Positions 19,046-35,089 are shown, numbered from the stretch's first letter. The stretch is 64,000 nucleotides of DNA from an uncultured Rikenellaceae bacterium (GCA_964466705.1 CAYXSM010000009.1:44308-108307); one strand, 5' to 3'. A program made the numbers and translations. Notes: a model not told the origin generated them from the sequence alone.

Positions 19046-20383
19046 TTACTGCTTTGCGACTACAGGTTCTGTTCCGGCAGCTTCAGCGGCAGCCCTGGCT
19101 TCCGCCATTTCTTCCCTGGTAGGCCTGGTTCTCCACCAGCTTGCAAGTGTTGAACCGGTAACATTCATCAGTGGTCCGTAAATGGCAGGAGCAAGTCCTA
19201 TAGTTGCAATATTACCCATTGTCAGGGCGAGGCCGGAAGCTAAACCTCCGTTTGACATACTTACCTCGAAAGCAAGTGTTCTGCAATCCTTTTCAGGTAA
19301 TCTGAAGAGCCGGCCGGCATTGTATCCGAAGAAATAACCACCCAGGTTCTGCAAGGTGACAACAAGTAAAAGCAATGCCCCTACTGCCAGAAGACTTTCC
19401 TGTCCGGCGGCAGTAATAACTGTTACTATCACTGCAATTCCGACCATGGAAAGAAGCGAAAGGATCTTTTTCTGAAGCTTTACGTCCCCTTTAAGAAAAT
19501 GACGGAAAAGCATCGCGGCGACTATCGGAAGAACGATCCACAGGGCAAGCGATTTGGCTGAGGCGATTAAATATCCAGAAAAGCCAACCTGATTGACTTT
19601 AAGATAGATAAGGTTACAGAGCAGGATTGTTACGGCATATGCCAGGAGCTGTATGTTCCTCGAACGTCTGGTTTTGTCACCTGCATTTATCATATTGAAG
19701 ATAAAGCCTGCAATGATCGGGAATATCATCATGTTTATTATATCCATCATCATGCTCCATATATTTATTGCAACATACTGACCTCCAATGATTTTCATCA
19801 AGAATGGTGTAACAACCGGAGCTACAATGGTCGTTACGGCGCTTACGGCAACTGCAAGCACCAGGTTAGCATTACACAGCAATGACATTACATTTGAGGC
19901 AAGACCGTTGGGAACACAGCCTACAAGGATTATACCTGCAGCAATTTCGGGAGGGAAATGAAAGACTTTTACAATCAGCAGTGCTGTCAGAGGCATTATG
20001 GTGTAATGTCCGAAAAAACCGACCAGAACCCCTTTCGGCACTTTTATTACCCCTGCAAAATCATCAAAACTCATTTGTGAACCCATTCCAAACATAATTA
20101 TCTGAAGCAACGGTACTATCAGGGCAGTTGTTTTAAAATTTCCATACGAAAGAAATAGCTGGGGATAGAACATTGCGGCAGCTACGGCTGTAAACATCCA
20201 CATGGTGAAGGATAATCCCTTTGTAGCCTGAAATCCCTTGACTGCAAATGATAGTATTATGAACATTAATATGAGCAATGGTCCTGAGGCTCCGCCTTTA
20301 CCGGCAATTGCCATACCAATCACAATTAAAAGCAACAGCAGGGCAACTCCAAGACCTGCCTTGTAAAAATTGATTTTTTTCAT
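19046..20383 (-). CDS. Bile acid:sodium symporter (BASS/SBF-like) family transporter
   Basis: 445 aa with 10 or more TM segments. GCVPNGLASNVMSLLCNANLVLAVAVSAVTT resembles the BASS core motif. It has an Ala/Glu-rich cytoplasmic tail and is the first gene of the kdgK-eda operon. Confidence 0.7.
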   Translation of the reverse strand: MKKINFYKAGLGVALLLLLIVIGMAIAGKGGASGPLLILMFIILSFAVKGFQATKGLSFTMWMFTAVAAAMFYPQLFLSYGNFKTTALIVPLLQIIMFGMGSQMSFDDFAGVIKVPKGVLVGFFGHYTIMPLTALLIVKVFHFPPEIAAGIILVGCVPNGLASNVMSLLCNANLVLAVAVSAVTTIVAPVVTPFLMKIIGGQYVAINIWSMMMDIINMMIFPIIAGFIFNMINAGDKTRRSRNIQLLAYAVTILLCNLIYLKVNQVGFSGYLIASAKSLALWIVLPIVAAMLFRHFLKGDVKLQKKILSLLSMVGIAVIVTVITAAGQESLLAVGALLLLVVTLQNLGGYFFGYNAGRLFRLPEKDCRTLAFEVSMSNGGLASGLALTMGNIATIGLAPAIYGPLMNVTGSTLASWWRTRPTREEMAEARAAAEAAGTEPVVAKQ

Positions 20384-20654: not shown

Positions 20655-21905
20655 ATGTTAAGAAGGAATTTTCTGCGAACTTCTTCTGCAGGCATCCTGG
20701 GGCTTATGAGCCATGATATCAGGAATGTACTGGAGAACCCTGACCTGCCGGCAATACCGAAGCTGACAATAACGGGAATTGAAACGGTCCGCTTCAGGAA
20801 TGCTAACTGGATGTGGCTCAGATTGCATACCAGTGAAGGTATTACCGGAACGGGAGAGACTTATCCCTTCAACGAAGCAAATTCCGGGGTTATTAAGGAC
20901 CTCGAATGGCACAGCTGGGCAGGCAGATTGCTTGGATCAGATCCCCTTGAAATTGAACAGATCTGGGAAAGGGTATTCCGGCAAAATGCATTCCACGGAA
21001 CAGGCGGTGCCGAAATGAGGGCTCTGTCGGCTGTTAATATCGCACAGTGGGACATCCTGGGGCAGGTTGCCAATATGCCTTTATACCAGTTACTCGGCGG
21101 TTCATACAATAAGGAAATCAGAGTATACAACACGTACACTAACTCTCGTGCCATTAACGGATGGTCCCTGGAAAATGATATGGAAACAATTGCAGGATTC
21201 CTTGTTGGTCAGGGTATCAAAGCAATAAAGATCTGTCCGTTTGATAAAGTGGCTGCCAGGAATAATGGTGAATATATAAGCAGAATTGATATTGAGGAAA
21301 GTCTTGACTGGATCCGCAGGATAAGGGATTCTGTCGGGTTTGAGCTGGAAATTGGTTGTGAATTCCACAGCATGTGGAACCTTCCGTCGGCTGTACGTAT
21401 AGCAAGAGCTCTGGAGCCATATGAAATACTTTTTCTTGAAGACATGCTTTTACAGGATAATATCCAGGCCTACGTCAGTCTTAATAATGAATCACCGATC
21501 CCTCTCGTTATAAGTGAACGGCTGGCTACACGCTTCGGATTCAGGGAGATGTTTGAAGCTAAAGCAGGTTCTATAGTCATGTATGATCTTACATGGTGCG
21601 GTGGAATCAGCGAAGGAAAGAAAATTTCAGACCTGGCGAATACTTACTATATACCCACCATGATGCATACTGCAGGAGGACCTGTCCTGTGGTACGCATC
21701 AGCACATCTGGCTGCAGCCATAACCAATCTCTTCTACGTGGAAAGTGTTTTCCCGACATGGCACGACCGCGACTTCCTTTACTTCGAAAATCCTCCCCAG
21801 GTACGGGGAGGCCTGATAAAACCACCATGCCTGCCAGGTCTTGGCCTTCAGTTCCGGAAAGAAGTGTTCGATCACAAAAATAGCATTGTTGAGAGAATCG
21901 CATGA
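20655..21905 (+). CDS. Enolase-superfamily (mandelate racemase/muconate lactonizing, acid-sugar dehydratase type) protein with Tat signal
   Basis: 416 aa. The N-terminus MLRRNFLRTSSAGILGLMS has a twin-arginine motif. Capping-domain GITGTGETYP and barrel motifs EIGCEFHSMWN, ILFLEDML and VISERLA are present. Confidence 0.85.
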   Translation: MLRRNFLRTSSAGILGLMSHDIRNVLENPDLPAIPKLTITGIETVRFRNANWMWLRLHTSEGITGTGETYPFNEANSGVIKDLEWHSWAGRLLGSDPLEIEQIWERVFRQNAFHGTGGAEMRALSAVNIAQWDILGQVANMPLYQLLGGSYNKEIRVYNTYTNSRAINGWSLENDMETIAGFLVGQGIKAIKICPFDKVAARNNGEYISRIDIEESLDWIRRIRDSVGFELEIGCEFHSMWNLPSAVRIARALEPYEILFLEDMLLQDNIQAYVSLNNESPIPLVISERLATRFGFREMFEAKAGSIVMYDLTWCGGISEGKKISDLANTYYIPTMMHTAGGPVLWYASAHLAAAITNLFYVESVFPTWHDRDFLYFENPPQVRGGLIKPPCLPGLGLQFRKEVFDHKNSIVERIA

Positions 21906-21946
21906 TATCTGCGACAACTAAACAGATTATCATACCTTATCATCCT

Positions 21947-23080
21947 CTAGCCTTCAGCAATCACCCGTTCTACGAGTGCTTTCATATAACCTATGGAAAA
22001 GGCAGTTCCCGTATATGGCCCGTAAACCATCGAAGGAATGTGATCGGCAATTATCACCCCGTCAAAATCAACATCTTTCAGAGCTTTGAGTATTTTGTAC
22101 ATATCGGCATATCCGTCATCAAGGAATGTCTCGACAAAATGAGGAAGAGGCTGGTTGACATTACGGAAATGGACCTTGAAGATCTTTTTTCTTTCACCGA
22201 AATACCTGATGGTCTCAATGACATCTTCGCCCATAAGATCTCCGCCTTCAAGCCAGCATCCTACGCACAGGCAAATTCCCACGTTTGGACTGTCAGCAAT
22301 TTCAAGAGCACGTTTGTATCCATCGAAACTGCTGAATATACACCTTGGTATTCCTCCCAGTTCAGGAACAGGGGGGTCATCGGGATGAATGCCGATTTTA
22401 ACATTTTCCTCCTCTGCCACGGGTGCAGCCTGACTGATGAAATATTTATAATTTTCCCACAGTTCATCATCAGTATATTTACGTCCGTGAGTTAGCGATC
22501 CTTCGTAGGTTTTTCCGTGCCAGTAACCGGCTACTGCACTGTCAAGGTTGAATGCCCGGGCTGAAGCTCCACCGCGTGTCGTTTCTCTTTCCGTGCTCCA
22601 GATGCCGTTAGCCATATGGGCATATGTTGTGTATGGTATACCTGCTTTTCCCAGATTACGTAAATGAGTTATATACTCTTTAATTTTGGAATCCCTTCCG
22701 GGCAGGTTCAGGGTAATGGCATCCTGGTTATGGACATCCCAGTTACCGAAACCGAAAACTTTTATTCCGGCTTCTTCAAACAGCAGACGCCTGCTGTTGT
22801 AATATTCGAAACCTGCCTTTCGGGCATCTGTCCACAGCACAACATGGTCAATACCCATCTGATGCATAAACCTGATATCATCTTCGGAAGGTTCAGGGGA
22901 AGCCTGCAGTGCAATTTTGATACAGGGCTCCTGAGGAGGATATTCTGAAGGATCTTTAATATAGCTTTCAACGGTTTCTTCAGAAGCGGATACATTGTTC
23001 CTGCATGAACTCAGCCCGGCAATCGAAAATGCTGCCAGGGCAGAGCCTTTTTTTATGAACTCTCTTCGGTTATCTTTCAT
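21947..23080 (-). CDS. Mannonate dehydratase (UxuA) family protein with Tat signal and lipobox
   Basis: The track ORF starts at 23161 and overlaps the upstream gene by 50 nt. Met at 23080 gives MKDNRREFIKKGSALAAFSIAGLSSC. IGIHPDDPP, FKVHFRNV and VIIADHIP are UxuA-type motifs as I recall them. Confidence 0.72.
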   Translation of the reverse strand: MKDNRREFIKKGSALAAFSIAGLSSCRNNVSASEETVESYIKDPSEYPPQEPCIKIALQASPEPSEDDIRFMHQMGIDHVVLWTDARKAGFEYYNSRRLLFEEAGIKVFGFGNWDVHNQDAITLNLPGRDSKIKEYITHLRNLGKAGIPYTTYAHMANGIWSTERETTRGGASARAFNLDSAVAGYWHGKTYEGSLTHGRKYTDDELWENYKYFISQAAPVAEEENVKIGIHPDDPPVPELGGIPRCIFSSFDGYKRALEIADSPNVGICLCVGCWLEGGDLMGEDVIETIRYFGERKKIFKVHFRNVNQPLPHFVETFLDDGYADMYKILKALKDVDFDGVIIADHIPSMVYGPYTGTAFSIGYMKALVERVIAEG

Positions 23081-23111
23081 ATTGTAAATTTTCGATGTTT
23101 GATTATTCTGA

Positions 23112-24893
23112 TTATTTTCCTGCCTTTCTGCCGGAAGATCCTTTGTAAGCTGACTTTTCATTCTTTACCAGAGTGTCAGGAAAAGAAACGAGTTCAATGC
23201 CTTTGTTGTATCCCAGGTTTCTAGAGTATTGCTTCTTCTCCGGGTCATTCCAGTGTTCATGTACACCAAGACTGGGGATTGGCTTACCGCTGTTATCAGG
23301 GTCATAGATAATTCCCTCCGGCCAGTTTGATTTATCGGCTGCCTGGTGAAGATAGTCATCCACTCCGTTAATGTTGGGTCTGTCTTCTGCTGCGTTATTG
23401 GCAGGATCATGTTTGTTGATCCCGTTCCATTCGGTCCGGAGAAAGTCAAAACATACCGATTCAAGAGCAACCTGATCCTGTGAGACAAAAATTGAGTTGC
23501 ACCAATCATCGTTGAAAGGTGGCATAAAGTACTTAACCGGTGCCCTGGTTTCGCTTGCACCCCCCCCAAAAAGACCGTCAACCAGGTATAATACCGTATT
23601 TTGACCAAGGTATTTGCTTCCCATCAGATCCACAAGGTTTCTGTATTTCCTGTAGCCGGTGTTTGTAGGACGTCCTCCAATGGGTATCACAAGGGCATTG
23701 TGCAGATGGATTGCATTCTCTCTGGCATGAGATCCGAAATGATTTTTTGCCGTCAGCGAGATGCCTGCCGACATATGAGGTTTGAGATTCGCAACATTTA
23801 TCAGGTAGTCGGCATTCTCTATCACGTCATAAAGCTTATCGGTCTGGGCTTTGTCGGAATAAAAGATAAGGTCTTTACTGGTAGGATAAATGAGCGTTCT
23901 TCCGTTTTCTGATGAGAATTTGCCAGTATAAACAACATCAGGAAATTCTGAAAACCATACATCATAATTATGACCACAGATATCAGTCATCGGATCACCG
24001 ACGACGATGTCAGCCTGATTGACTCCAACCTCATATACCAGTTCTTTCAAAAGCTCCAGGACAACATACGGCCCTGCCTCGGTTGCTCCGAAAACGGGTT
24101 TTCTCCGCTCTTCGCCCGGTTTCAGGGTTGTGGGATAATAGAATCCTTTTTCTTTTTCCTCAACATTCAGTCCAAGTCTTGATGTACCCTGGTTAATTTT
24201 GATTAGTATCTTTTCCCCTTTTCTGTAGCCTGCCTTTATGTTATGCTTTTTATGGTTGTGATACCGGAACAGGACATCCCATGAACGGGCAATTGTTTTT
24301 TCCCCGGTAAGTCCCGTAAGGGAGGATCTTATCATATCCCTTACCACTTCCCTGTTTGTATTCTCCGGCTTAAAGAACCAGTCCTGTGTATCGAAACAGG
24401 TTACACAGTTTTCATTTGTAGCTTCCGGATTCCACACCCAGACGACACGACCCGGATGGACTCCCTGTTCCACACCAGAGGGCTGGTTCGGGCCATCATC
24501 GGGGCCTGTTGCCGGAAGAGCTGCAGCATAAACGTCTTTAGCGCTGTTGGTCATGGAAATAATCAGTCCGGCAAGTGCGGCAACAATAAATAAAGCTGCG
24601 GCCACATAACGCGAACGGATAAGATTTTGTTTCGCTTTTCGGAAAGCCAGCAGGCTTCCTCCAAGCGAGAGAAGGTAGACAACAAAGCCTGACATGAGCG
24701 GTGCTGCCACTTTCATGCAGGGGTATGTGGCCCTGGATGGTTTTGGTATAACCCGGATTAAAAACCATATAGTAGAGATATCTCCGGTAAGTGCAAAAAG
24801 AAGCCGGGGAGGGATGTTGCGGCCAGGCATCCAGGCATTAATTTCCCCGATCTTTCTCTTAAGCTTTAATGCATCAAATCTGTATTTTCTCAT
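23112..24893 (-). CDS. Membrane-anchored DUF362 domain protein (paralog 1)
   Basis: 593 aa. Three predicted N-terminal TM helices include the conserved IWFLIRVIPKPSRATYPCMKVAAPLMSGFV. DUF362-like ILIKINQGT and LINVANLKPHMSAGISLTAKNHFGS are present. About 60% identical by eye to 27619..29358. Confidence 0.65.
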   Translation of the reverse strand: MRKYRFDALKLKRKIGEINAWMPGRNIPPRLLFALTGDISTIWFLIRVIPKPSRATYPCMKVAAPLMSGFVVYLLSLGGSLLAFRKAKQNLIRSRYVAAALFIVAALAGLIISMTNSAKDVYAAALPATGPDDGPNQPSGVEQGVHPGRVVWVWNPEATNENCVTCFDTQDWFFKPENTNREVVRDMIRSSLTGLTGEKTIARSWDVLFRYHNHKKHNIKAGYRKGEKILIKINQGTSRLGLNVEEKEKGFYYPTTLKPGEERRKPVFGATEAGPYVVLELLKELVYEVGVNQADIVVGDPMTDICGHNYDVWFSEFPDVVYTGKFSSENGRTLIYPTSKDLIFYSDKAQTDKLYDVIENADYLINVANLKPHMSAGISLTAKNHFGSHARENAIHLHNALVIPIGGRPTNTGYRKYRNLVDLMGSKYLGQNTVLYLVDGLFGGGASETRAPVKYFMPPFNDDWCNSIFVSQDQVALESVCFDFLRTEWNGINKHDPANNAAEDRPNINGVDDYLHQAADKSNWPEGIIYDPDNSGKPIPSLGVHEHWNDPEKKQYSRNLGYNKGIELVSFPDTLVKNEKSAYKGSSGRKAGK

Positions 24894-25018
24894 TATACTC
24901 CAGGCTGGTTAAAAATAATATATTATGATATTTCAGTTGTTTTTTATAATTATCTGAGTATTTAATAATTAATGTTCTTCATCTGCTCTCTTTACATTCA
25001 AAAGTACTTATTTTTAAT

Positions 25019-25047
25019 AAAAAAAGGGGCTTGTATCCACCCCTTTT
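25019..25047 (-). terminator. Intrinsic terminator candidate between the enolase paralog and DUF362 paralog 1
   Basis: The minus strand reads AAAAGGGG-tggatacaag-CCCC followed by TTTTTTATT, about 25 nt after the stop at 25069. Confidence 0.45.
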
Positions 25048-25068
25048 CTTATAAAAAATATCATGTGA

Positions 25069-26544
25069 TCAACTCCACAACCGGTCATGGGAACGCTTCT
25101 GATCCCATTCAGGTGTGGGTTCAAACCATGTCGAGCCTTTGCGCATATATTTTTTGCACACTTCCTCGTTCAGCTCAATGCCGAGTCCGGGAGAGTCAAG
25201 CGGTACATTGGCAAATCCTTTCTCTATCATGGGTTTGGAGCCGGTCATTCTGACAAGGTCGTTATAATAAGGTGTATCCACGTTATGATGCTCCAGTGAA
25301 AGGAAGTTTTGAGTTGCGGCTGCGCAGTGCACATTTGCCATCAGGCATACCGGCGATCCTGCCATATGCATGGCCATGGCAATTCCGTGCTCTTCGGCAT
25401 AATCACCGATCCTTTTGGTCTCCAGAAGACCTCCTGAGCTTCCAAGATCGGGATGAATAATGTCTATTGCCTGGGCATCAATGAGAGGTTTGAAACCATC
25501 CTTGAGCAGATAGATATCCTCTCCTGTCAATACAGGTGTTTCGAGAGCTTCGGTAAGGATCTTGTTCTTGTGTACATCGAACCATGGCACCATATCTTCA
25601 AGCCATGCCAGACGGTATTTTTCCATAGCCCGCCCGAATCGTATTGCATTGTTCACATCAAAGTGTCCGAAATGGTCGGCACAGAGGGGCATTTCATACC
25701 CGACCCCGTCTCTCACCTTTTCAACGTATTCTGCAAGTCCTGCGAGTCCTTTGTCCGTTATCTGTACCTGTGTGAAAGGATGAAGGGTGTTGCCGTAACC
25801 CATATAGGTTCTCAGATCGTACTGTCCTGTGGCTCCGTCCCAGAATTTTGAATTTACTAGTGTGTCCGGCTGCTTTGCAACGACATGTATTCCAAGATCC
25901 ATCTTTAGCCAGGTAAATCCCTGTTCTTCAACTCTTTTCTTCATCACTTCTGCAAATCTGACCGGATCGTCGGCACCCGGAGTGTCAGCATAGAGCCGCA
26001 CTTTGTCGCGGTACCTTCCTCCAAGAAGCTGCCAGGCCGGAACATTGTAAGCCTTTCCTGTCAGATCCCACAGAGCCATTTCAACAGCACAAACGCCCCC
26101 TCCCTGGCGGCCATGGTAGCCAAATTGCCTTATTATTTTAAAAATCATTTCAACATTGCAGGGATTAAGGCCCAGTATTCTGCTTTTAAGGAAAAGAGCA
26201 TAACGCACATCGGCACCGTCTCTTACTTCGCCAAGTCCGTAAATTCCCTGGTTGGTGTCAATCCTAATGATATGCTTGTTCATGATAGTGGCGTAGCGCA
26301 TATCGGTGATCTTAAGATCAGAAGGATTTGATGCCCTGTTGACCTGAGATGTGGTATGTGCTATAGTGTCTTCCAATGACAGGTGCATAAGACCGCCCAG
26401 GGCAATACCCCCGAAAGCGGCTTTTTTCAGGAAGCTCCGGCGATCATTGTCCTGATGAGGCGAATCAATGATCAGGGATTTATTTACTTCTTCCTTTTCC
26501 CTGGTCTTTTCTTTTTCAATAATCTTCTTCAATGATTCTTTCAT
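25069..26544 (-). CDS. Enolase-superfamily acid-sugar dehydratase-like protein with Tat signal
   Basis: 491 aa. A long n-region precedes DRRSFLKKAAFGGIALGG. GIYGLGEV, CADHFGHFD, AWLEDMVPW and LTGEDIY match D/E/E metal-ligand contexts of the MR subgroup. Confidence 0.85.
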   Translation of the reverse strand: MKESLKKIIEKEKTREKEEVNKSLIIDSPHQDNDRRSFLKKAAFGGIALGGLMHLSLEDTIAHTTSQVNRASNPSDLKITDMRYATIMNKHIIRIDTNQGIYGLGEVRDGADVRYALFLKSRILGLNPCNVEMIFKIIRQFGYHGRQGGGVCAVEMALWDLTGKAYNVPAWQLLGGRYRDKVRLYADTPGADDPVRFAEVMKKRVEEQGFTWLKMDLGIHVVAKQPDTLVNSKFWDGATGQYDLRTYMGYGNTLHPFTQVQITDKGLAGLAEYVEKVRDGVGYEMPLCADHFGHFDVNNAIRFGRAMEKYRLAWLEDMVPWFDVHKNKILTEALETPVLTGEDIYLLKDGFKPLIDAQAIDIIHPDLGSSGGLLETKRIGDYAEEHGIAMAMHMAGSPVCLMANVHCAAATQNFLSLEHHNVDTPYYNDLVRMTGSKPMIEKGFANVPLDSPGLGIELNEEVCKKYMRKGSTWFEPTPEWDQKRSHDRLWS

Positions 26545-26586
26545 AATGTATTTATTAATGATTTAATTGGATTAACATTTTTCTGA

Positions 26587-27519
26587 TTACCAGTTACGAT
26601 CCTTGAAATAATTATCCAGCTCCTCCTGTGTCATGGGCAGTTTGCCGGGGTAATTTTTCAGCCAGCTGAGAAAATCATTTCTGATTTCTTCTGACCAGCG
26701 GGTATCTATCTGTCCGGGTTTATACCTGCCTTCACGCAGTCTCTGATGTCCGAATTCATCACGCAGGGCTGTTACTTCGCCGTTGATGACAAGATCCTTA
26801 ACAAGGTATGCGGGAATGAAAATCACTCCGTATTTTTTTGCGAGCACCACATCACCAGGAAAAACGGTTGCATTGCCGATTCTTACCGGGGCATTAATCG
26901 AAGTCAGCATCATATTGGTAATCCACGATGGGTCCGAACCCAGAAACCAGGCATTGAACCCTTCTATTTCCGCCAGACCTTCCTCGTCCCTTATTGAACC
27001 ATAGAACACAACCCCTCTTTTGGATTTACTGTAGATTGAGTTACCCAGATTATCTCCGATAAGAGTTCCATCCACTATTTTCCCGTATCCATCAGCAACA
27101 TATACATCACCATCTACAAGAATATCTATGGGCCATGAGTTGGTCCCTCCCTCCTGGGTCCGGTCCTCCTGTTTTCCCAATTCACGTATGTATTTGTCAT
27201 AATCAGGGCGTGAGGGCATGTATTGGGCTGTGACAACTCTCCCTGTCATTGTTTCTTCAGGATGAAGGATCTCCCATTTCCTCTCGAACTGATTATGATA
27301 GCCTCTGGCACGAAGGAAGGCATAAGCTTCCTCCACAGAGATATTCTTCAGTCTTTCAAGATATGAATCTGAAACTTTGGGTCTCCCGTCAGCAAAGCGT
27401 TCACCGGTCCATTCCGAAGTAATGGATTTAATGTATCCGGGGGTGGAATTTATTCGCTGAGGCAGGGCAATGGCGCTTATTCCAAACAAACTGGCAAGCA
27501 GAAATAATCTTCTGTACAT
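26587..27519 (-). CDS. RraA-family (HMG/CHA aldolase-like) protein with N-terminal signal peptide
   Basis: 310 aa. Signal MYRRLFLLASLFGISAIALPQ. GDVYVADGYGKIVDGTLIGDNLG, RGVVFYGSIRD and PVRIGNATVFPGDVVLAKKYGVIFIP resemble the RraA/DlpA fold. Confidence 0.72.
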   Translation of the reverse strand: MYRRLFLLASLFGISAIALPQRINSTPGYIKSITSEWTGERFADGRPKVSDSYLERLKNISVEEAYAFLRARGYHNQFERKWEILHPEETMTGRVVTAQYMPSRPDYDKYIRELGKQEDRTQEGGTNSWPIDILVDGDVYVADGYGKIVDGTLIGDNLGNSIYSKSKRGVVFYGSIRDEEGLAEIEGFNAWFLGSDPSWITNMMLTSINAPVRIGNATVFPGDVVLAKKYGVIFIPAYLVKDLVINGEVTALRDEFGHQRLREGRYKPGQIDTRWSEEIRNDFLSWLKNYPGKLPMTQEELDNYFKDRNW

Positions 27520-27618
27520 AATGTATGGGTTTAGATTTTAAGTAAGCTGATCGTAAGTTAAGTCTCGGTTACAAAAATGGCTCAAAGTTACCTTTATGGT
27601 ACGTTGGGATTCTTTAGA

Positions 27619-29358
27619 TTACCTCCTGGATATTGCCAGAGTATCAGGCACAGAGACCAGCTCTATGCCATATGGGCGCCCCAGATTACGGGAATACTGC
27701 TTCTGCACTGCATTATTCCAGTGCTCATGAATGCCCAGGCTCGGAAGGGGCCTGCCGCTGCCGTCAGGATCATATACAATACCCTCAGGCCAGCTGGCCG
27801 GAACAGCAGCCTGATGAAGATAATCGTCGACTCCGTTTACATTTGGAATGTCCTCATAAGAATTGTTGGCCGGATTATGTGAGTATGTTCCGTTCCATTC
27901 TGCCCTCAGGAAATCATAACATACCGATTCAAGTGCAACCTGGTCCTGCGATACAAATATCGAATTGCACCAGTCGTTGTTAAAAGGCTGCATAAAATAT
28001 TTAACCGGGACTTTTGTCTCATTTGACCCTCCCCCGAACAATCCGTCAACGACAAAAAGCAGCGTATTTCTGCCAAGATAACGGCTTCCCATTATGTCTA
28101 CCATTACCCGGTATTTACCGTATCCGTTGTTGGTTGGTCTTCCCAGTGAGACCGGAGAAATTAAAGAAGCATGAAGATGAACAGCAGATTGTCTTCCATG
28201 TGATCCGAAATGATTTTTTGCGGTCAGTGAGATTCCGGCTCTTCCGTGAGGTTTCAGATTTGCCACATTGATAAGGTAATCAGCATCCTCAAAGACATCA
28301 TATAGCCTGTCTCTCAGCTTTCCGTCAGAGTAAATGACAAGTTCATTTTCTGACGGCTTTGTAAGCGTCCGGCCAAACTTGTCAGACGATCTGTCAACAT
28401 ACACCACATCAGGGAATTCCCTGGCCCACACTTCATGATTATGTCCGAATATGTGGCTCATAGGGTCACCAATGGCAATATTCTTCTGATCTACCCCGGC
28501 TTTGTTGACAAGCTGTCTCAGGATTTCAAGGACCACGTTGGGATATGTCTCGCATGTTCCCGTCAGGCCATTTCTGGCATGTTCACTGTCAGTTACTTCT
28601 GCAGGAATGTAGAAGCCATTTTCTATCTCTCTTTTTCTCAGCTTTGCATTGGCAGTTCCCTGGTTTATCTTGATAAAGATCTTTTCTCCTTTTTTATATC
28701 CTCTTTTTTTATTGTATTTCTGATAATTAAACGACCGGAAAAGAGCATCCCATGATCTCTCGAGGGTTGATTTGCCTGTGAGCTTCAATATTGCATCTTC
28801 CATCATTTTGCTCACGACGTCCTGATCTGTGTTGCCGGGTTTGTGTAAATCAAAACTGTTAATGCAATTTTCATTGGTAGCTTCCGGGTTCCAGACCCAT
28901 ACAACACGGCCCGCATTGATGCCGGCAGGTTCTCCCATTGGCTGGTTAGGCCCGTCCGAAGGTCCCGTTAAAATGTTTCCTTCAGTTATATCGTTACCGG
29001 ATGTAGCCGGATCAACTGTGTTGCTGAAGCTGAATAATGCGGTAAACAACAGGAACAGGGTTGATATAAACCTGACCCTGTGAATTCCATTACGTGTTTT
29101 TCTGAAGAGAAGTGTAAGCCCTCCCACAGACAGAATATATATCACGAAGCCTGACATCAGTGGCGCTGCCACACGCATACAGGGATATGCAGCCCTGGAA
29201 GGTTTTGGCATTACTCTGATGATGAACCAGATTGTTGATACGATACCAGGAACCAGGAAAATCAGAAGGGGAGGGATTTTAAAATATTTCATCTTCTCCC
29301 TGATTCTGCCCGGCCATCCTTTTAATTTAGAAATGCCAAATCTCTGAAATTCAGCCAT
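27619..29358 (-). CDS. Membrane-anchored DUF362 domain protein (paralog 2)
   Basis: 579 aa. It shares IWFIIRVMPKPSRAAYPCMRVAAPLMSGFV, GRVVWVWNPEATNENC, LINVANLKPHGRAGISLTAKNHFGSH and NDWCNSIFVSQDQVALESVCYDFLR with paralog 1. Confidence 0.65.
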   Translation of the reverse strand: MAEFQRFGISKLKGWPGRIREKMKYFKIPPLLIFLVPGIVSTIWFIIRVMPKPSRAAYPCMRVAAPLMSGFVIYILSVGGLTLLFRKTRNGIHRVRFISTLFLLFTALFSFSNTVDPATSGNDITEGNILTGPSDGPNQPMGEPAGINAGRVVWVWNPEATNENCINSFDLHKPGNTDQDVVSKMMEDAILKLTGKSTLERSWDALFRSFNYQKYNKKRGYKKGEKIFIKINQGTANAKLRKREIENGFYIPAEVTDSEHARNGLTGTCETYPNVVLEILRQLVNKAGVDQKNIAIGDPMSHIFGHNHEVWAREFPDVVYVDRSSDKFGRTLTKPSENELVIYSDGKLRDRLYDVFEDADYLINVANLKPHGRAGISLTAKNHFGSHGRQSAVHLHASLISPVSLGRPTNNGYGKYRVMVDIMGSRYLGRNTLLFVVDGLFGGGSNETKVPVKYFMQPFNNDWCNSIFVSQDQVALESVCYDFLRAEWNGTYSHNPANNSYEDIPNVNGVDDYLHQAAVPASWPEGIVYDPDGSGRPLPSLGIHEHWNNAVQKQYSRNLGRPYGIELVSVPDTLAISRR

Positions 29359-29555
29359 AGAGAATGAAAAGGAATTTATACGCAGTTAATTATACCACAA
29401 GGTTTATCAAAAAGATTTATGTGATTAAACATATGCAGTTTTTTCCTCAGAAAAAATCCGCATAATGAAAAAATCAAAAAATTTAACATTTTTTAAGATA
29501 TGCCACGGCAAATTCCCTGAGAAACTGATTTAAACCAGAGTACGTATGTCGGATA

Positions 29556-31202
29556 CTAATTATACCTGAATGCAACAAGGCTTCTTGGCGGGAGGTTTTT
29601 TACCGCTATGGTGTTCCCATTCCTGCCGAGCGTGGCTTTTGCATCGTAGGGCAGGGATAATATCTGTTTGGCATCTGTCACTGCCGGTAAAGTAAGGCTT
29701 ACATCAACCGGTTCATTGTTAAAATTCTCTATTACGCAACAATCGTCACCATATAGATATAGTCCGACTTTGTTGGGAGCGTCAAATTTCATTCCGAGAG
29801 GTGCCAGCAGTTTATCCCGCATGGGATTAAGTTCTTCCCGGGTAAGCTTGAGAAGGCTTTTAGGTTCTCCCGAGACCTTCAGCGATGACAGGTTCTTATG
29901 CTGCAGGAGATCCTGGTCAGTAAGCCTTATTGCAAGTGCGTCGGTAACAAGCACACTGTTCCCGTTGTTAAGCATGCGCCTCAGTATTTCTGAGAATCCC
30001 GGCTGCTTGAGCATATGCACGGTAAATACGGAAACTTTTGCCAGTTCATTTACCTGGTGTGTTGGCAGCAACGGGAGTCCCAGCATGCCTATGTAACTGT
30101 AAACATAAGGCTCTTCGTAGGGGTGGCTGGCAGGCAGTTTTGGCATATTTATTCCCTTAAGAGGTTTATTGCGCACGATCCTTGCCAGATCGAACAGATG
30201 AGGGAGTTCCTTTCTGAATGCTTCAACATTGGCTACACCGGTGCCTTCCCATCCGTCATATTTATTTGATGGCGAAATTAGATTGCTGTAACAGAACAGC
30301 ATGAGTTCCTTTGCATCTGCCAGTACCGTTTGCCGTGCCTGCTCAAGATATGTGTCGGATGTGGTTCCCAGTGCATCAAACCAACCTCCTCCGGTTTTGT
30401 CACCGCCAAGGCCGCCAAGCCAGCGCATAATGAAATATGCATTATATTGTACCGTACCTCCCGGCCTTATATCAAAATCGTAGTCGCGTGTCTCTGTGCC
30501 GACATATATGTGATCAAAATCTTCAGTTTGCCGGTCCACTACATATCCACGGTCATGAAACCTGTCATACCATAGAGGATATTTTATTATTATCCTTGCG
30601 TTGGGGTTCACGGCTTTTGAAGCCTTCAGTATTCGCTCACGGCTCACTTTGACCATCAGGTCGCTGTAATAATCGGACCATTGCTGATGACCTTTTGCAT
30701 TATAGCATTCTTCACAGGTGCAGTCGGTGAACAGAAAGTCATCTACCATTATCTCATCGAACATTGAGGCTGTGTATTCAAATATCTTCTGAAGCTCTTC
30801 CTGTGTCCCCCTATTTGTATAACAGGAAATAACATTCCACCCCCCGGCTGAAATTTTAGCAATCTGGGTGGGAGTAACACATCCTGAAACCTCAAAACCC
30901 TCACTGAGAAAACGGTCTCTGGCAGTTACAAGATCTTCACGTGTGGCATAATAGTTATTTCTGAACGATTCAATATATACTTTTGTAATGCCTGTCTTTT
31001 TGCACCAGTCAACAGCGAAATCAAGCCCGTCAGGCTTGGAAAGGTGGTCTCTTACGTTCTGGGCCGTAAATAATGTGGTTACTGTCAGGATGTCCTTGTT
31101 TTTCCTGGCAATGTCCAGGAGTGATTGTGATAAGGCTGGTACCTGAACGAGAAAAATGGCTGCAATTACCATAACAGCACCGAATGATAATTTCTTTGTC
31201 AT
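29556..31202 (-). CDS. Secreted protein of unknown function; possible glycoside-hydrolase-like TIM barrel
   Basis: 548 aa. Sec signal MTKKLSFGAVMVIAAIFLVQVPALSQ. Coding status is clear: a long ORF with no competing frame. I do not recognise a named family. VDDFLFTDCTCEECYNAKG is loosely reminiscent of GHL-type TIM barrels. Confidence 0.5.
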   Translation of the reverse strand: MTKKLSFGAVMVIAAIFLVQVPALSQSLLDIARKNKDILTVTTLFTAQNVRDHLSKPDGLDFAVDWCKKTGITKVYIESFRNNYYATREDLVTARDRFLSEGFEVSGCVTPTQIAKISAGGWNVISCYTNRGTQEELQKIFEYTASMFDEIMVDDFLFTDCTCEECYNAKGHQQWSDYYSDLMVKVSRERILKASKAVNPNARIIIKYPLWYDRFHDRGYVVDRQTEDFDHIYVGTETRDYDFDIRPGGTVQYNAYFIMRWLGGLGGDKTGGGWFDALGTTSDTYLEQARQTVLADAKELMLFCYSNLISPSNKYDGWEGTGVANVEAFRKELPHLFDLARIVRNKPLKGINMPKLPASHPYEEPYVYSYIGMLGLPLLPTHQVNELAKVSVFTVHMLKQPGFSEILRRMLNNGNSVLVTDALAIRLTDQDLLQHKNLSSLKVSGEPKSLLKLTREELNPMRDKLLAPLGMKFDAPNKVGLYLYGDDCCVIENFNNEPVDVSLTLPAVTDAKQILSLPYDAKATLGRNGNTIAVKNLPPRSLVAFRYN

Positions 31203-31455
31203 TTTTTATGGTTTTAGTGTGGTTTAATCAAAATTCAATGTAAATTTTAAGAAAATAATTTGAATTTTGCAACTTCCGGCACATAAGGATGCATGGGTCT
31301 TGAAGACCGGATCCTTAATGTTTTCATGGATAAGGAGCCATAAAAATCAGGATCATGTTTTTCCGGCTCCTCTTTTAATTACAGATTTTAAAATTCAAAA
31401 AAAATTTATTAACTTTAATATAATGAACCCTTTTAATCCGGAAGTAAAAGCACCC

Positions 31456-32643
31456 ATGAAAAGAAATCTCTTAATAATGTCATTGTCAGCCCTGCTGATC
31501 TGTTATTCCTGCACTTCACAAAAGCCAATGGAGGATATCATTAATGAATCGTTATCATTTGCAGTAAAGCAATATGGACTGATGACTGATGTGATCAGGG
31601 AAATACCCGATGAACTGCCCAGGACCCTGGATGACCAGGGAAACCTTATCACTGTCAGGTCCGGCTGGTGGACAAGTGGTTTTTTCCCCGGAAGCCTGTG
31701 GTACCTTTATGAATTTACGGCTGATCAGCAGCTGAAAGATGACGCCATCCTGATAAGTTCGCGGGTGGAAAGGGAAAAATATACTACAAACAATCATGAT
31801 GTAGGATTTATTCTTTACTGCAGCTACGGAAACGGATTGAGGCTCACCGGCGAAGAGAGCTACACTGAAGTTCTTCTTACGGGTGCAAGGTCTCTGAGCA
31901 AGCGGTTCAGACCAAACATTGGAACCATACAGTCGTGGGCGGCCACACCCGCATGGCAATGCCCGGTTATTGTTGACAACATGATGAACCTCGAGCTTCT
32001 TATGTGGGCTTTCAAGAAATCGGGCGACTCGTCATTTTATAAAATAGCCGTAAAACATTCTGACACAACGATGAAGAATCATTACAGACCAGATCACAGT
32101 GCATATCATGTGGTATCATATGACACAATCACGGGTCAGGTTGAAGCTAAACAGACCCATCAGGGTTTTTCGGACGAGTCAGACTGGGCGCGCGGTCAAA
32201 GCTGGGGTCTTTATGGTTTTGTGATGATGTACAGGGAAACGGGACTGTACAGGTATCTCGAGCACGCGATAAATATTGCAGATTTTCTTACGGGTCACCC
32301 GGGCATGCCGGATGATATGATACCTTACTGGGACTACGATGCACCCGGTATCCCTGATGCAAAAAGAGATGCCTCAGCCGGGGCAATAATGGCATCTGCG
32401 CTTACTGAACTTGGCGGATATGTTGATAATGACAGGAAAAGCAGGTATCTTGAGGTTGCCGGAAAACAGTTGCGAAGCCTTTCTTCACCCGCGTACCGGG
32501 CAGGCCCTGGAGAAAACGGAAACTTCATCCTGAAACACAGTGTGGGGTCACTTCCTGCCGGCAGCGAAGTTGATGTGCCGCTTACCTACGCCGATTATTA
32601 TTACATAGAAGCATTGCTGAGGTACAGAAAACTATTGCGATAA
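31456..32643 (+). CDS. Glycoside hydrolase family 88 (unsaturated glucuronyl/galacturonyl hydrolase), lipoprotein
   Basis: The track ORF starts at 31267. Met at 31456 gives MKRNLLIMSLSALLICYSC; 31423 is also possible. WWTSGFFPGSLWYLYEFT, NNHDVGFILYCSYGNG, VIVDNMMNLELLMWA and WARGQSWGLYGF are GH88 hallmarks. Confidence 0.85.
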   Translation: MKRNLLIMSLSALLICYSCTSQKPMEDIINESLSFAVKQYGLMTDVIREIPDELPRTLDDQGNLITVRSGWWTSGFFPGSLWYLYEFTADQQLKDDAILISSRVEREKYTTNNHDVGFILYCSYGNGLRLTGEESYTEVLLTGARSLSKRFRPNIGTIQSWAATPAWQCPVIVDNMMNLELLMWAFKKSGDSSFYKIAVKHSDTTMKNHYRPDHSAYHVVSYDTITGQVEAKQTHQGFSDESDWARGQSWGLYGFVMMYRETGLYRYLEHAINIADFLTGHPGMPDDMIPYWDYDAPGIPDAKRDASAGAIMASALTELGGYVDNDRKSRYLEVAGKQLRSLSSPAYRAGPGENGNFILKHSVGSLPAGSEVDVPLTYADYYYIEALLRYRKLLR

Positions 32644-32663
32644 GCCTTCAGGGCAAAAGCATA

Positions 32664-33698
32664 TTAGAAATCAACCAATGCCTTCATAACTCCGTCACCG
32701 TAATCTGCTACGAGGTCAAATGCTTTTCTTGTGTCAGCAAAAGAGAATCTGTGGGTGATCATATTTTTTACACTGACTCTTCCTGAATTCATCAGTTCCA
32801 GGGCGGTTTCCACACAATCTACCTGTCTTCTGACAAATTGTATCTCAATTTCCTTGCGGCGTGTAAGGTCAACATTAAAAGACCAGTTCTCAAATCCGGG
32901 GATTCCCACCACCATCAGTCTGCCGCCCGGCTTCAGCAGCTCGATCGACTGATCCGCAGCTTCCTGCTTGCCACAGCATTCAAAGACTATATCAAGGCCT
33001 GAAGGCACCTTGTTTAATATACTTTCAACAATGTTTTCATTGTCAGGGTTTCCGGCCCAGGAGACCTTTTCACGCTCCGCAATTGATAACCTCTCTTTAA
33101 TCCTGTCAGTAACATAAATATGTCCTGCGCCTGACGCTGCGGCTGCCAGCATTACACTCATGCCTATAGGTCCAAAGCCGAGGATGGCTGTATCGGCATT
33201 TTTAATTTTACCGGATTTCTTGACTGCATACACTCCTATGGCAAGCGGTTCAGATATGGCACCATGATCCGTATTAAGATGGCAGCTGAGAGGAAAACAG
33301 CTTTCTTCAGGCATAACAATATACTCCATAAGGCATCCCTCAGCCTGTCCGGGGCAGCCAAGAAATTTCAGGTGCCGGCAGGTATGATGTCTTCCCGAAA
33401 GGCACTGGTCACACTTCCAGCATGGCATTGCCGGTTCAACGGCAACCCGATCGCCGGGCCTGACCCTGGTGACCGAAGATCCGGTTTCGGTAACCACGCC
33501 CGCCCCTTCATGTCCTGCTGCAAACGGGTATGTGACAACCTGGGAACCGATTTTCCCTTTAGTGTAATAGTGTATGTCTGAGCCGCATATACCGACCACC
33601 GACATTTTGATTTTTACATCACCGGGGCGCTTTAACTCAGGTTCAGGAATGTCACTCATTTCCATCTGTCTGATCCCTGTCAGCCTCATTGCCTTCAT
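32664..33698 (-). CDS. Zn-dependent MDR alcohol/polyol dehydrogenase (sorbitol/threonine dehydrogenase-like)
   Basis: GICGSDIHYY, GHEGAGVV, the CxxCxxC-like CWKCDQCLSGRHHTC structural Zn site and the Rossmann GFGPIGMS. I prefer the start at Met 33698 (MKAMRLTG) over 33728. No signal peptide. Confidence 0.85.
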   Translation of the reverse strand: MKAMRLTGIRQMEMSDIPEPELKRPGDVKIKMSVVGICGSDIHYYTKGKIGSQVVTYPFAAGHEGAGVVTETGSSVTRVRPGDRVAVEPAMPCWKCDQCLSGRHHTCRHLKFLGCPGQAEGCLMEYIVMPEESCFPLSCHLNTDHGAISEPLAIGVYAVKKSGKIKNADTAILGFGPIGMSVMLAAAASGAGHIYVTDRIKERLSIAEREKVSWAGNPDNENIVESILNKVPSGLDIVFECCGKQEAADQSIELLKPGGRLMVVGIPGFENWSFNVDLTRRKEIEIQFVRRQVDCVETALELMNSGRVSVKNMITHRFSFADTRKAFDLVADYGDGVMKALVDF

Positions 33699-33760
33699 CG
33701 TGTCCTGTTTTATATTGTATTTGAACAAATATAATTATTAAGGATGATATTCACATCTGT

Positions 33761-35089
33761 TCAGTTACGGGGCCTGTCATATCTGCCTGGTATAAAGGGG
33801 AATTTTTTCGCTGCGTCATCTATCATTTCGACCCCGAATCCTGGTTTATCAGGCAATTCGATATAACCGTTCACGGGAACCAGCGGTTCTTTGAACAATT
33901 CTGTCCGCAAAGGATTGAAGGTCTGGTTTGACTCAAGCATTACCAGGTTGGGAATGCCTGCCGCAAGGGTGGCGTTGGAAACTGTAAGCAGTGCCCCGTG
34001 CCAGTTATGAGGAGCACATAATTGTCCCTGCAGATGGGCCATCCGTGATACATACCATGCTTCAGTGAGACCCATGACCCCTGCATCCGGCTGGACAATA
34101 TCCATGGCGTTACGGTCGATCCATTCCTTGTAATGGAACCGGTTGTCCATCACATCTCCGCCGTAGGAGAGCTTCACGTCTCTCAGGTTGTCCTTGATTT
34201 TCCTGTAATTATCCCTTGCCTGAGGCCCGAGGCGCTCGACAGGGTCCTCAATCCAGATCAGCTTCATCTTTTCAGCCTCAGGAATAAACTGCATTGTCTG
34301 TTCCATATTCCACTGTGCGTTGCACTCCTGGATCAACCCGAAGTCAGTGCCGACAGCTTCCCTTATTTTCCACACCCCGTCAATATATTTTGTCATTGTC
34401 ATTCCACTGACTGACCAGTGGGTTCCCGGCCTGAATTTGTAAGCCCCGAATCCTTTTTGCTTAAGTTCAAGGGCCTCACTGATAAGATTATCGGGCCAGA
34501 TATCACCGTCATACATTTCTCCGGCACTGGCATATACAGGGATTTTTGTCGCAGGTTTATGATCAACCGCCAGAAATTCATAAACAGGCCTGCCTTTTAC
34601 TTTCCCTATAATGTCCCAGAGGGCAGAGTCAACTCCTGCCCACCCAACCATCGGCCCCCTTACTCTTACCCCGCATGTAAGAAACTCTATGTCAAAAGGA
34701 TTCTTTCCTTTTATGGCAGGTCGTATTACTTCTTCAAGGTATTGTTTTACGACGTCCGGGCCCCCATATTGCGTGGCTCCTCCTATACCTGTAATTCCTT
34801 TGTCGGTGAATATTTCCACCAGTATGCTGTCTGTTTTCCAGGCCTTGTACCTCTCAGGGATCCAGTCCAGGTACCATTGCTCCTCTGGTGGCAGTTCATA
34901 TGAAAGCAAAGTAACTTTAAGATCAGTTATTCTGATATTTTCCCTTTCGACACCATCCAGAGGATGATTTCTTGATTTTTCTGACAACCCTGATCCTGTA
35001 TCTGTTCCGCAGGCAGAAAGTCCGGCTGCAGTGCCCAGGCCTGCAAGTGTACCGGTACTTATGAATTTTCGTCTCGACAGTGATTTCAT
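33761..35089 (-). CDS. Enolase-superfamily protein with Tat signal and lipobox
   Basis: 442 aa. N-terminus MKSLSRRKFISTGTLAGLGTAAGLSAC. GITGIGGATQ, LIQECNAQWN and IWIEDPV are MR_MLE-type barrel motifs. Confidence 0.85.
   Translation of the reverse strand: MKSLSRRKFISTGTLAGLGTAAGLSACGTDTGSGLSEKSRNHPLDGVERENIRITDLKVTLLSYELPPEEQWYLDWIPERYKAWKTDSILVEIFTDKGITGIGGATQYGGPDVVKQYLEEVIRPAIKGKNPFDIEFLTCGVRVRGPMVGWAGVDSALWDIIGKVKGRPVYEFLAVDHKPATKIPVYASAGEMYDGDIWPDNLISEALELKQKGFGAYKFRPGTHWSVSGMTMTKYIDGVWKIREAVGTDFGLIQECNAQWNMEQTMQFIPEAEKMKLIWIEDPVERLGPQARDNYRKIKDNLRDVKLSYGGDVMDNRFHYKEWIDRNAMDIVQPDAGVMGLTEAWYVSRMAHLQGQLCAPHNWHGALLTVSNATLAAGIPNLVMLESNQTFNPLRTELFKEPLVPVNGYIELPDKPGFGVEMIDDAAKKFPFIPGRYDRPRN

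Follow-up and report, generated by a model that had tools for sequence, protein, structure and literature searches.

Predicted export of sugar-acid dehydratases alongside membrane DUF362 proteins in a recurrent gene module of uncultured Bacteroidales

Oxidative (non- or semi-phosphorylative) routes of sugar breakdown, among them the De Ley-Doudoroff and Weimberg/Dahms pathways and those through L-rhamnose and L-fucose acids, are cytoplasmic. The ten-gene island described here occupies positions 20655-35089 of a 64,000-nucleotide stretch of DNA, which we call the window, from an uncultured Rikenellaceae bacterium (GCA_964466705.1, CAYXSM010000009.1:44308-108307). It encodes three enolase-superfamily proteins of the acid-sugar dehydratase type (ENO1, ENO2 and ENO3), a UxuA-type mannonate dehydratase homolog (UXUA), an RraA-like protein (RRAA), two membrane proteins with a DUF362 domain (DUFa and DUFb), a predicted glycosidase (GHX), a GH88 unsaturated glucuronyl hydrolase and an MDR dehydrogenase. 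The island and its relatives resemble the oxidative pathways in their cast of enzymes: an aldose 1-dehydrogenase (often of the Gfo/Idh/MocA family), a lactonase, a dehydratase of the enolase or UxuA type, and a 2-keto-3-deoxy-acid aldolase or a kinase with an aldolase. They differ in that the dehydratases and the lyase, and in sister loci also the dehydrogenase, mutarotase and lactonase, bear twin-arginine (Tat) or Sec signals, in that DUF362 is a constant partner, and in that no dehydratase of the module, nor RRAA, reaches an equivalog cutoff. Uncultured Bacteroidales carry this uncharacterised gene set repeatedly as a module, of which the island is one copy, and export of its sugar-acid enzymes is very likely, judging from their N-termini.

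Sugar acids are also made outside the cytoplasm, by GFOR with gluconolactonase in Zymomonas and by the periplasmic conversion of glucose to gluconate and ketogluconate in Pseudomonas and Gluconobacter. Such systems share with the module extracytoplasmic sugar acids, a Tat-exported, cofactor-loaded Gfo/Idh/MocA enzyme and import of the acid afterwards, but they end at the aldonate or ketoaldonate, and we know of none that includes an exported dehydratase, an RraA-fold lyase or a DUF362 protein. A periplasmic 3-keto-glycoside pathway of Bacteroides (BT2156-BT2160), reportedly described by Nasseri et al. in Nature in 2024 (cited in PMC11949833), is said to cleave glycosides non-hydrolytically by means of a Tat-exported Gfo/Idh/MocA enzyme and a xylose-isomerase-like TIM barrel. 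Likeness lies in the Tat-exported enzymes of cytoplasmic type, the non-hydrolytic sugar chemistry and the Bacteroidota periplasm; the difference is that C3 oxidation and then elimination take place on glycosides, and that enolase, UxuA, RraA and DUF362 proteins are absent. The catabolism of unsaturated uronates (lyase, GH88, KduI/KduD or DEHU reductase, KdgK, Eda) has counterparts here in GH88, a KDG-type kinase and a KDPG aldolase, and in the lyase of sister loci, but the island lacks KduI, KduD and DEHU reductase. In the oxidative DEHU route an RraA-fold enzyme, FlDet, is proven to act in uronate-derived acid metabolism (PMC8563752); FlDet is cytoplasmic, whereas RRAA has a Sec-type signal and is paired with ENO2, an enolase-type protein with a Tat signal. 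GntE, of the LarA superfamily (PMC11770544), interconverts gluconate and mannonate, the latter being the substrate of UxuA, and the pairing of DUF362 with UxuA-like genes parallels this; DUF362, however, lies outside the LarA family, its predicted orientation is outward, held by a three-helix anchor, and genes for the nickel-pincer cofactor were not seen. The initial annotation knew of no characterised system of such composition, and literature searches likewise found no description of exported enolase or UxuA dehydratases, of a role for DUF362 or of this module; homologs in the databases are named only "mannonate dehydratase", "mandelate racemase family" or "hypothetical". The module would combine familiar enzyme families and a familiar pathway logic, transferred to the far side of the membrane and linked with a membrane protein that is itself uncharacterised, all functions being inferred from sequence.

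Scans of the six-frame open reading frames of the window with Pfam and NCBIfam returned all ten genes where the initial annotation had placed them and with the domains it had listed, apart from two starts. UXUA begins with MKDNRREFIKK at position 23083 rather than 23161, and GH88 begins at ~31423-31456 (first called at 31267). MR_MLE_N and MR_MLE_C both exceed the gathering score in ENO1 (20655-21905, plus strand; MR_MLE_C E-value 5e-49), ENO2 (25069-26544, minus strand) and ENO3 (33761-35089, minus strand), and PDB homologs are matched at E-values of 1e-34 to 1e-74. A three-way alignment shows an invariant Glu (LED/IED), Asp311, His338 and Glu363; by alignment alone, the first metal ligand is E, D and E in ENO1, ENO2 and ENO3, and the third is E in the first two and probably D in ENO3. 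The three acidic metal ligands (strands 3-5), the dyad of Asp (strand 6) and His (strand 7), and the strand-8 Glu are, on this alignment, retained in all three enolase-type proteins. All three fall far short of the NCBIfam equivalog cutoffs for isofunctional families with a characterised activity (the dehydratases of galactonate, mannonate, gluconate, rhamnonate, arabinonate, talarate and glucarate), the best score being 202 against 311 bits for galactonate dehydratase.

UXUA (21947-23083, minus strand) is predicted to be a UxuA-type, xylose-isomerase-like TIM barrel. It scores 142.9 bits against a Pfam UxuA cutoff of 23.7 (E-value 1.4e-41) and matches a mannonate dehydratase, PDB 3ban, with an E-value of 5e-28, but it remains below the equivalogs for authentic UxuA (80.6 versus 199.55 bits for TIGR00695 and 120.6 versus 191 for PRK03906), with a match that spans only residues 125-387. 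RRAA (26587-27519, minus strand) is an RraA-fold protein, either an HMG/CHA-aldolase or an FlDet-type lyase by resemblance, with 63.3 bits against the Pfam RraA-like cutoff of 24.5 (E-value 3.9e-17). Its nearest PDB entries are 5x15 and 3noj, and its IRD motif aligns with the RD motif of 5x15, so that the catalytic Arg-Asp pair is kept; it too is below all NCBIfam equivalog cutoffs for CHA/HMG aldolase and RraA, for example with 44.4 versus 304.5 bits for LigK/PcmE. RRAA is not necessarily an aldolase, for FlDet, an RraA-like enzyme of characterised activity, dehydrates and decarboxylates 2-keto-3-deoxy-hexarate, and its gene adjoins that of an exo-alginate lyase (PMC8563752). With all equivalog scores below cutoff, no substrate is assignable to ENO1-ENO3, UXUA or RRAA.

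Export was judged by the conservation of N-terminal features across homologs. The translations contain four twin-arginine motifs, LRRNFLR in ENO1, DRRSFLKK in ENO2, SRRKFIS in ENO3 and NRREFIKK in UXUA, and these, like the lipobox Cys residues and the Sec-type N-termini, read as they were first described. The four agree with the Tat consensus S/T-R-R-x-F-L-K ahead of a mildly hydrophobic h-region. Relative to solved cytoplasmic homologs, ENO1, ENO2 and ENO3 have ~35, ~70 and ~55 extra N-terminal residues, and alignment to PDB homologs places the onset of the catalytic domain at residue ~37 (2pod/4dx3), 75-90 and 50-88, respectively. The N-terminus of ENO1, MLRRNFLR, is retained as MKRRNF plus AMA|VAP in an ortholog that is 77% identical (locus L088; related loci are numbered here with the prefix L), and two more distant relatives in L096 also have the RR pair. 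For ENO2, in which the Tat motif follows a charged n-region of ~33 amino acids, S/D-R-R-x-F-L-K-K is present in 119 of the 120 best homologs (78-86% identical, ~492 amino acids), the lone exception being a truncated entry, and the same 119 retain a Gly-rich h-region and "EDTIAQTT". The n-region itself (residues 1-33 of ENO2, and its counterpart in homologs P0121-P0240) is charged, probably helical, and conserved in length though variable in sequence, reminiscent of Tat signals that bind dedicated chaperones.

UXUA homologs have N-R-R-x-F-[IL]-K-K in 117 of the best 120 cases, the remaining three being truncated, and the lipobox Cys that follows in UXUA is found in only a subset of the 120. An RR that stays fixed while the lipobox is optional is what one would expect if the signal is real and its lipid anchor dispensable; paralogs of UXUA at ~30% identity have the RR likewise. 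ENO3 has few relatives: when all of 1.84 billion cluster representatives were searched with HMMER (E < 1e-30), only 117 emerged, among which the RR of its predicted Tat signal and lipobox (SRRKFIS...LSAC) is present in all 13 that cover the N-terminus and the lipobox Cys in seven. The next clade (33-41% identical, ~385 amino acids) begins with "MKITD" at the equivalent of ENO3 residue 53 and lacks a signal, so the ENO3 signal is a clade-specific add-on. Mis-called starts, with the true ones downstream of the RR motifs, were rejected as an explanation, because in sister clades that lack the signal the protein starts precisely with the mature domain.

RRAA, GH88 and GHX carry predicted Sec or lipoprotein signals. 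Orthologs of RRAA have divergent hydrophobic N-termini that end in A-x-A|QN and are followed by a conserved SPEYIK, those of GH88 keep the lipoprotein Cys, and the N-terminus of GHX varies until a conserved SQxLWD. Kinases, the KDPG aldolase and MDR dehydrogenases of the same locus served as controls and have no signals. The initial proposal that enzymes of cytoplasmic type are exported thus gains from Tat and Sec signals kept in hundreds of homologs in several paralogous families; Tat signals on the three enolase-type enzymes and UXUA would imply that these proteins are exported folded and loaded with metal.

DUFa (23112-24893, minus strand; 41 bits against a Pfam cutoff of 24) and DUFb (27619-29358, minus strand; 43.6 bits against 24) are 59% identical in alignment. 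Each begins with three hydrophobic segments in a hydropathy profile (31-50, 59-85 and 90-119 in one paralog; 25-52, 59-86 and 94-115 in the other), in agreement with the three transmembrane helices first predicted to precede the DUF362 domains. The membrane module of DUFa contains the motif RVIPKPSRATYPC, and between helices 1 and 2 the motif RV[IV]PKPSRA.YPC shows no variation between Bacteroidales and Planctomycetota. From the strongly basic N-terminus and the helix 2-3 loop, the DUF362 domain is predicted to face outward. In six loci DUF362 is fused to an SMP-30/gluconolactonase domain, and other fusion partners, in keeping with an outward orientation, are CBM9 with a type IX secretion system (T9SS) sorting domain, a beta-helix and propeller repeats; proteins that combine DUF362, CBM9 and a dockerin were reported earlier (PMC5742341). 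DUF362 (PF04015) shares a Pfam clan with the N-terminal domain of LarA, whose superfamily includes D-gluconate/D-mannonate 2-epimerases (PMC11770544). In L120, L121 and L128, DUF362 proteins, some of them with CBM9, combine the three-helix membrane module with a C-terminal sorting domain of the T9SS. This is topologically puzzling, since anchoring in the inner membrane ought to preclude secretion through the outer membrane unless cleavage occurs at helix 3.

A scan of JGI metagenome contigs with an alignment of DUF362 proteins bearing the three-helix module returned at least 589 relatives. Among the matches listed in which DUF362 is at least 57% identical, 16 of 29 loci encode an enolase-superfamily protein, a UxuA-like protein or both at a distance of a few kb at most, usually in the neighbouring gene, and the RR motif is present in 25 of the 26 such neighbours with an intact N-terminus. 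Triads of DUF362, enolase and UxuA-like genes recur, made up of paralog families that are only 25-31% identical to those of the window. DUFa lies directly upstream of UXUA, and this gene order recurs in L089, L094 and L170; orthologs of DUFb are found in L005, L068 and L170. RRAA and ENO2 are a fixed adjacent pair wherever both genes were seen, with RRAA directly upstream of ENO2 in L005, L068, L085, L086, L092 and L170 and directly downstream in L094. The initial annotation called for a search for co-occurrence of Tat-enolase, DUF362 and RraA-like genes, and in these neighbourhoods the module recurs across metagenome loci. Its conserved core is a membrane DUF362 protein with enolase and UxuA-like dehydratases predicted to be Tat-exported and an RraA-like partner with a Sec-type signal. 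DUF362 is the constant partner of the exported dehydratases, more so than GH88. The window itself derives from ENA metagenome assemblies, the genomes nearest to it are uncultured Bacteroidales metagenome-assembled genomes, and carriers come mostly from anaerobic-reactor and sediment-type samples.

Other parts of the locus vary. L170 has the gene order of the window except that a lyase replaces GHX: ENO, MDR, lyase, GH88, DUF362, RRAA, ENO2, DUF362 and UXUA, with SBF and KdgK genes further on. A Hepar_II_III-type lyase fills the slot of GHX in L085, L086 and L170, SusC-like and SusD-like genes stand between DUFb and RRAA in L005 (the closest genome), and in L096 the module lies inside a SusC/SusD/FecR locus. 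The description of the island as devoid of Sus genes, polysaccharide lyase and regulator consequently holds within its borders, and for SusC/SusD pairs throughout the 64-kb window, where none was found; it does not hold for the module, given L005 and L096 for SusC/SusD and L085, L086 and L170 for lyases, nor for a regulator beyond the island, where a GntR gene lies at 47101-47817. Sister loci also contain genes for other signal-bearing proteins. A seven-bladed lactonase is encoded within two genes of DUF362 in L092, L096 and L102, an aldose 1-epimerase near DUF362 in L110 and L118, and a Gfo/Idh/MocA protein near DUF362 in L092, L097, L117 and L118. The run in L118 reads esterase, mutarotase, Gfo/Idh/MocA, ENO, UxuA-like and DUF362, with signals on all products from the mutarotase to DUF362. 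These exported mutarotase, Gfo/Idh/MocA and lactonase genes, together with the DUF362-lactonase fusions, make extracytoplasmic sugar-acid chemistry plausible.

Further genes were seen beside such modules. An aldo/keto reductase with a twin-arginine signal (MENRREFIKKAGAAAALAF) is encoded at 955-2019 of L105, where its operon also specifies an enolase and a long protein that joins DUF362 to a propeller, and an aldo/keto reductase gene has the same operon position in L171 (4618-5640). A secreted protein of ~320 amino acids without a Pfam match, marked by the motif EISNGLI.A.IYLPD...GYY..TRFDWSG, is encoded beside DUF362/ENO/UxuA-like modules in L091, L092 (1549-2520) and L097 (6385-7347).

In the window six genes of the island form a single minus-strand run with gaps of 28-197 bp, in the order GHX (first gene), DUFb, RRAA, ENO2, DUFa and UXUA. 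GHX (29556-31202, minus strand), a secreted protein of 548 amino acids, had been called an orphan. It is not one: precomputed Pfam assignments place it in the newer families PF28584 (GH_cat) and PF28585 (GH_C), it has >2,500 homologs (488 relatives in GTDB species representatives, from Bacteroidales and Planctomycetota), and its AlphaFold2 (AF2) model, with a pLDDT of 87, has a three-domain fold with a (beta/alpha)8 barrel. Foldseek with this model matched best a GH164 beta-mannosidase (E-value 6e-14, TM-score 0.64-0.66) and then GH42 and GH167, so we describe GHX as a predicted three-domain glycosidase with a GH164/GH42-like fold; a local copy of Pfam and a sequence search of the PDB gave no match. 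Directly after barrel strand 4, GHX has D154-D155 followed by C161-x-C163-x-x-C166 (CxCxxC), all invariant. At the D154-D155 position clan GH-A normally has N-E, and the modelled site may be a metal site or point to a non-classical glycosidase chemistry. At least five GHX paralogs (P0012, P0015, P0019, P0026 and P0028) are probably on one 153,814-bp ENA contig, suggesting a lineage-specific expansion. When GHX was used as a synteny anchor, the island was shared in two of 80 loci (L005 and L068) and a DUF362 gene was present in three of the 80, in Planctomycetota; GHX so rarely accompanies island genes that it is not part of the module core. GH88 (~31423-32643, plus strand; Pfam GH88), a lipoprotein by its predicted signal, is a genuine member of its family, matching PDB 3wiw with an E-value of 6.6e-107 and the unsaturated glucuronyl hydrolases of Bacillus and Streptococcus with E-values of 1e-48 to 1e-53.

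The island is a variable cassette set between two conserved flanks. The first consists of an SBF/BASS-family transporter (19046-20383, minus strand; Pfam SBF), whose gene is divergently transcribed from ENO1, a KDG-type kinase (17968-19005, minus strand; Pfam PfkB), a KHG/KDPG aldolase (17208-17897, minus strand; Pfam Aldolase) and a YhcH-like gene. Among named NCBIfam families the transporter is closest to PanS, which carries ketopantoate and pantoate, and an SBF gene lies beside the module in L086, L088, L092, L095 and L170 as well. The kinase best matches KDG/KDGal kinases, and the aldolase passes the NCBIfam KHG/KDPG equivalog cutoff (354 versus 275 bits). The second flank comprises the MDR dehydrogenase, an isochorismatase, a PfkB protein, an MDR protein of 420 amino acids, an aldolase-II/SDR protein and a PHP-like gene. 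The MDR dehydrogenase (32664-33698, or 32664-33728 as first called, minus strand; Zn-ADH family, Pfam ADH_N and ADH_zinc_N; 344 amino acids as called in L001) has no signal and is predicted to be cytoplasmic, belonging to the conserved flank and not to the exported set; it adjoins the module in L005, L068, L085, L086, L088 and L170 too. Farther along, Pfam identifies a GntR/UTRA protein (47101-47817, plus strand) and a Gfo/Idh/MocA oxidoreductase (47937-49262, plus strand) with a Tat signal and lipobox (N-terminus SRRRFLGSAAAGMAG...ITSC), which are candidates for the regulator and the exported dehydrogenase of the wider locus. The latter weakly resembles the glycoside 3-dehydrogenase family of BT_2158 (106 bits against a cutoff of 750).

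No RNA family was found in an Rfam scan of the window, and a scan for sigma-70 promoters and terminators gave counts no higher than in shuffled sequence; its sole convincing terminator is at ~16651-16680, after the YhcH-like gene. The PHP-like gene (40317-41576) encodes 419 amino acids with only a weak PHP-domain match and no NCBIfam family, and it adjoins the bifunctional aldolase-II/SDR gene in L001, L086 and L088 as well. At 12831-16575 the locus is flanked by genes for a ureide-permease-like sugar permease, a secreted ADP-ribosylglycohydrolase-family protein (538 amino acids, with a signal peptide) and a ribokinase equivalog, a trio conserved in L085 and L086 to which relatives add a nucleoside hydrolase and a DUF5060 protein. 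Upstream, within 3926-8820, are genes for aconitase, isocitrate dehydrogenase and citrate synthase, and beyond the sugar locus on its downstream side, at 43161-46895, is a 2-oxoacid dehydrogenase pair of a fused E1 (alpha-beta) and an E2.

The model that we prefer, with a probability of about 0.5, is extracytoplasmic dehydration of sugar acids, import of the resulting 2-keto-3-deoxy acids through the BASS transporter, and their further processing by KDG kinase and KDPG aldolase. Periplasmic GH88 and GHX, or the lyase in sister genomes, would release acidic or oxidisable sugars, from which exported mutarotase, Gfo/Idh/MocA and lactonase would supply aldonates in the sister loci that have these genes. 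DUF362 would act at the lactone/aldonate step, preferably as a LarA-like C2 epimerase or a redox isomerase that feeds stereospecific dehydratases, or else as a reducing-end oxidoreductase or a polymer-active enzyme. Dehydration of sugar acids by the enolase and UxuA-like enzymes, exported through Tat, would then give 2-keto-3-deoxy acids, and RRAA would act on the product of ENO2, splitting it in a retro-aldol reaction or dehydrating and decarboxylating it as FlDet does with its substrate. The keto acids would be taken up by the adjacent BASS/SBF transporter, and a cytoplasmic KDG/KDGal-type kinase followed by the KHG/KDPG aldolase would complete the pathway. The initial annotation had envisaged a non-phosphorylative route lying outside the cytoplasm. 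Its exported dehydratases are retained in our model, but since the SBF transporter, the KDG-type kinase and the KHG/KDPG aldolase are conserved next door, we argue that the pathway finishes inside the cell by phosphorylation. As to the link that it drew from GH88 to unsaturated uronates, DUF362 and not GH88 is the most constant partner of the exported dehydratases, and unsaturated uronates are one option only.

Several observations weigh against this model. The island has no lactonase or mutarotase, its sole exported Gfo/Idh/MocA candidate lies 13 kb off, and net oxidation in the periplasm would need an electron sink. ENO1-ENO3, UXUA and RRAA all stay under every NCBIfam equivalog cutoff, and 75 of the 80 GHX loci are without any island gene, so GHX is not obligately linked. 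Sequence and profile searches of the PDB with DUF362 found no match, its AF2 model, built from two sequences, has a pLDDT of 30, its proposed role comes solely from fusions and clan membership, and the versions with CBM9, dockerin or T9SS domains suggest an enzyme that acts on polymers and not on free acids. The Pfam TAT_signal model is below threshold in all four Tat candidates (E-value 0.11 for ENO1 and 0.2 for ENO3, no match for the others). As to electron transfer, cytochrome-c proteins are encoded near UXUA homologs, and besides the Tat-signal aldo/keto reductase of L105 there is in L117 (8098-13469) a multihaem cytochrome of the NapC/NirT type that includes an FGE-sulfatase domain as a fusion and is followed within ~4 kb by two Gfo/Idh/MocA genes. 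These L117 genes are close to a triad of ENO, UxuA-like and DUF362 genes, and the cytochrome could be an electron outlet for periplasmic dehydrogenases.

The polymer-type fusions of DUF362 (CBM9, beta-helix, propeller repeats, T9SS domains and dockerins; PMC5742341) also favour a different substrate, namely acid residues at the ends of oligo- or polysaccharides, which the exported enzymes would cleave non-hydrolytically or tailor, with DUF362 as a new carbohydrate-active domain. The chemistry would be an enolase-type abstraction of an alpha proton from uronate or aldonate residues, with lyase- or epimerase-like outcomes. The SusC/SusD genes of L005 and L096 and the adjoining GH88, lyases, GH28, esterases and sulfatases fit such a role, as does the non-hydrolytic glycoside cleavage that Tat-exported Gfo/Idh/MocA and xylose-isomerase-like enzymes are said to carry out in the Bacteroides periplasm. 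We nevertheless regard it as unlikely, since activity on glycosides is not known for any enzyme of the enolase superfamily or of the UxuA family, since lactonase fusions, mutarotase and a keto-acid-type transporter with a KDG kinase suit monosaccharide acids better, and since the Gfo/Idh/MocA protein of the window, at 106 against 750 bits, misses the BT_2158 equivalog cutoff. Less probable again is that ENO2 and RRAA form an aldarate branch linked to uronate polymers, in which ENO2 would convert a hexarate (for instance glucarate or galactarate) to 2-keto-3-deoxy-hexarate and RRAA would turn this into alpha-ketoglutarate semialdehyde, fed by oxidised products of the lyase and GH88. FlDet catalyses a dehydration and decarboxylation of this kind and its gene lies beside an exo-alginate lyase (PMC8563752), the RRAA-ENO2 pair adjoins GH88 and the Hepar_II_III lyase in L085, L086 and L170, and the enolase superfamily includes glucarate and talarate/galactarate dehydratases, to which there are weak NCBIfam matches. 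Yet FlDet lacks a signal peptide (the primer used to express it encodes MTTLSAST), the island has no uronate/DEHU dehydrogenase or alpha-ketoglutarate-semialdehyde dehydrogenase, ENO2 scores a negligible 21.9 bits with the glucarate dehydratase model, and the neighbour of ENO2 is more often DUF362 than GH88.

The weak TAT_signal scores, at E-values of 0.1-0.2 on just two N-termini, and the short h-region of ENO1 could instead mean that the N-terminal extensions are mis-called starts or membrane tethers, and that the enzymes work in the cytoplasm in an ordinary uronate/aldonate pathway. This we consider highly improbable: across the several paralog families RR and a hydrophobic region persist amid varying residues, the lipobox Cys comes and goes while RR stays, sister clades without signals start where the mature domain does, and most homologs have no internal start codon between the RR motif and the domain. 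We also propose, tentatively and with less confidence than in the preferred model, that DUF362 is a new extracytoplasmic carbohydrate-active catalytic domain. It may be a redox enzyme or epimerase acting at lactones, aldonates or reducing ends, or a glycan-cleaving enzyme, and in anaerobic Bacteroidales it would join exported dehydratases and an RraA-fold lyase in a complete periplasmic, Entner-Doudoroff-like oxidative pathway or in a system that oxidises, dehydrates and eliminates at glycan ends.

Mature ENO1-ENO3, UXUA, RRAA and the DUF362 ectodomain are clonable targets. If the proposals are true, thousands of entries named "mannonate dehydratase" or "mandelate racemase family" would constitute a distinct exported class of enzymes, and DUF362, which is widespread and is found in cellulosomal proteins and in those secreted by the T9SS as well, would gain its first clue to function. 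The point at which carbon is committed in glycan use by Bacteroidota would shift, diverse sugar acids being funnelled to a few 2-keto-3-deoxy acids before uptake.

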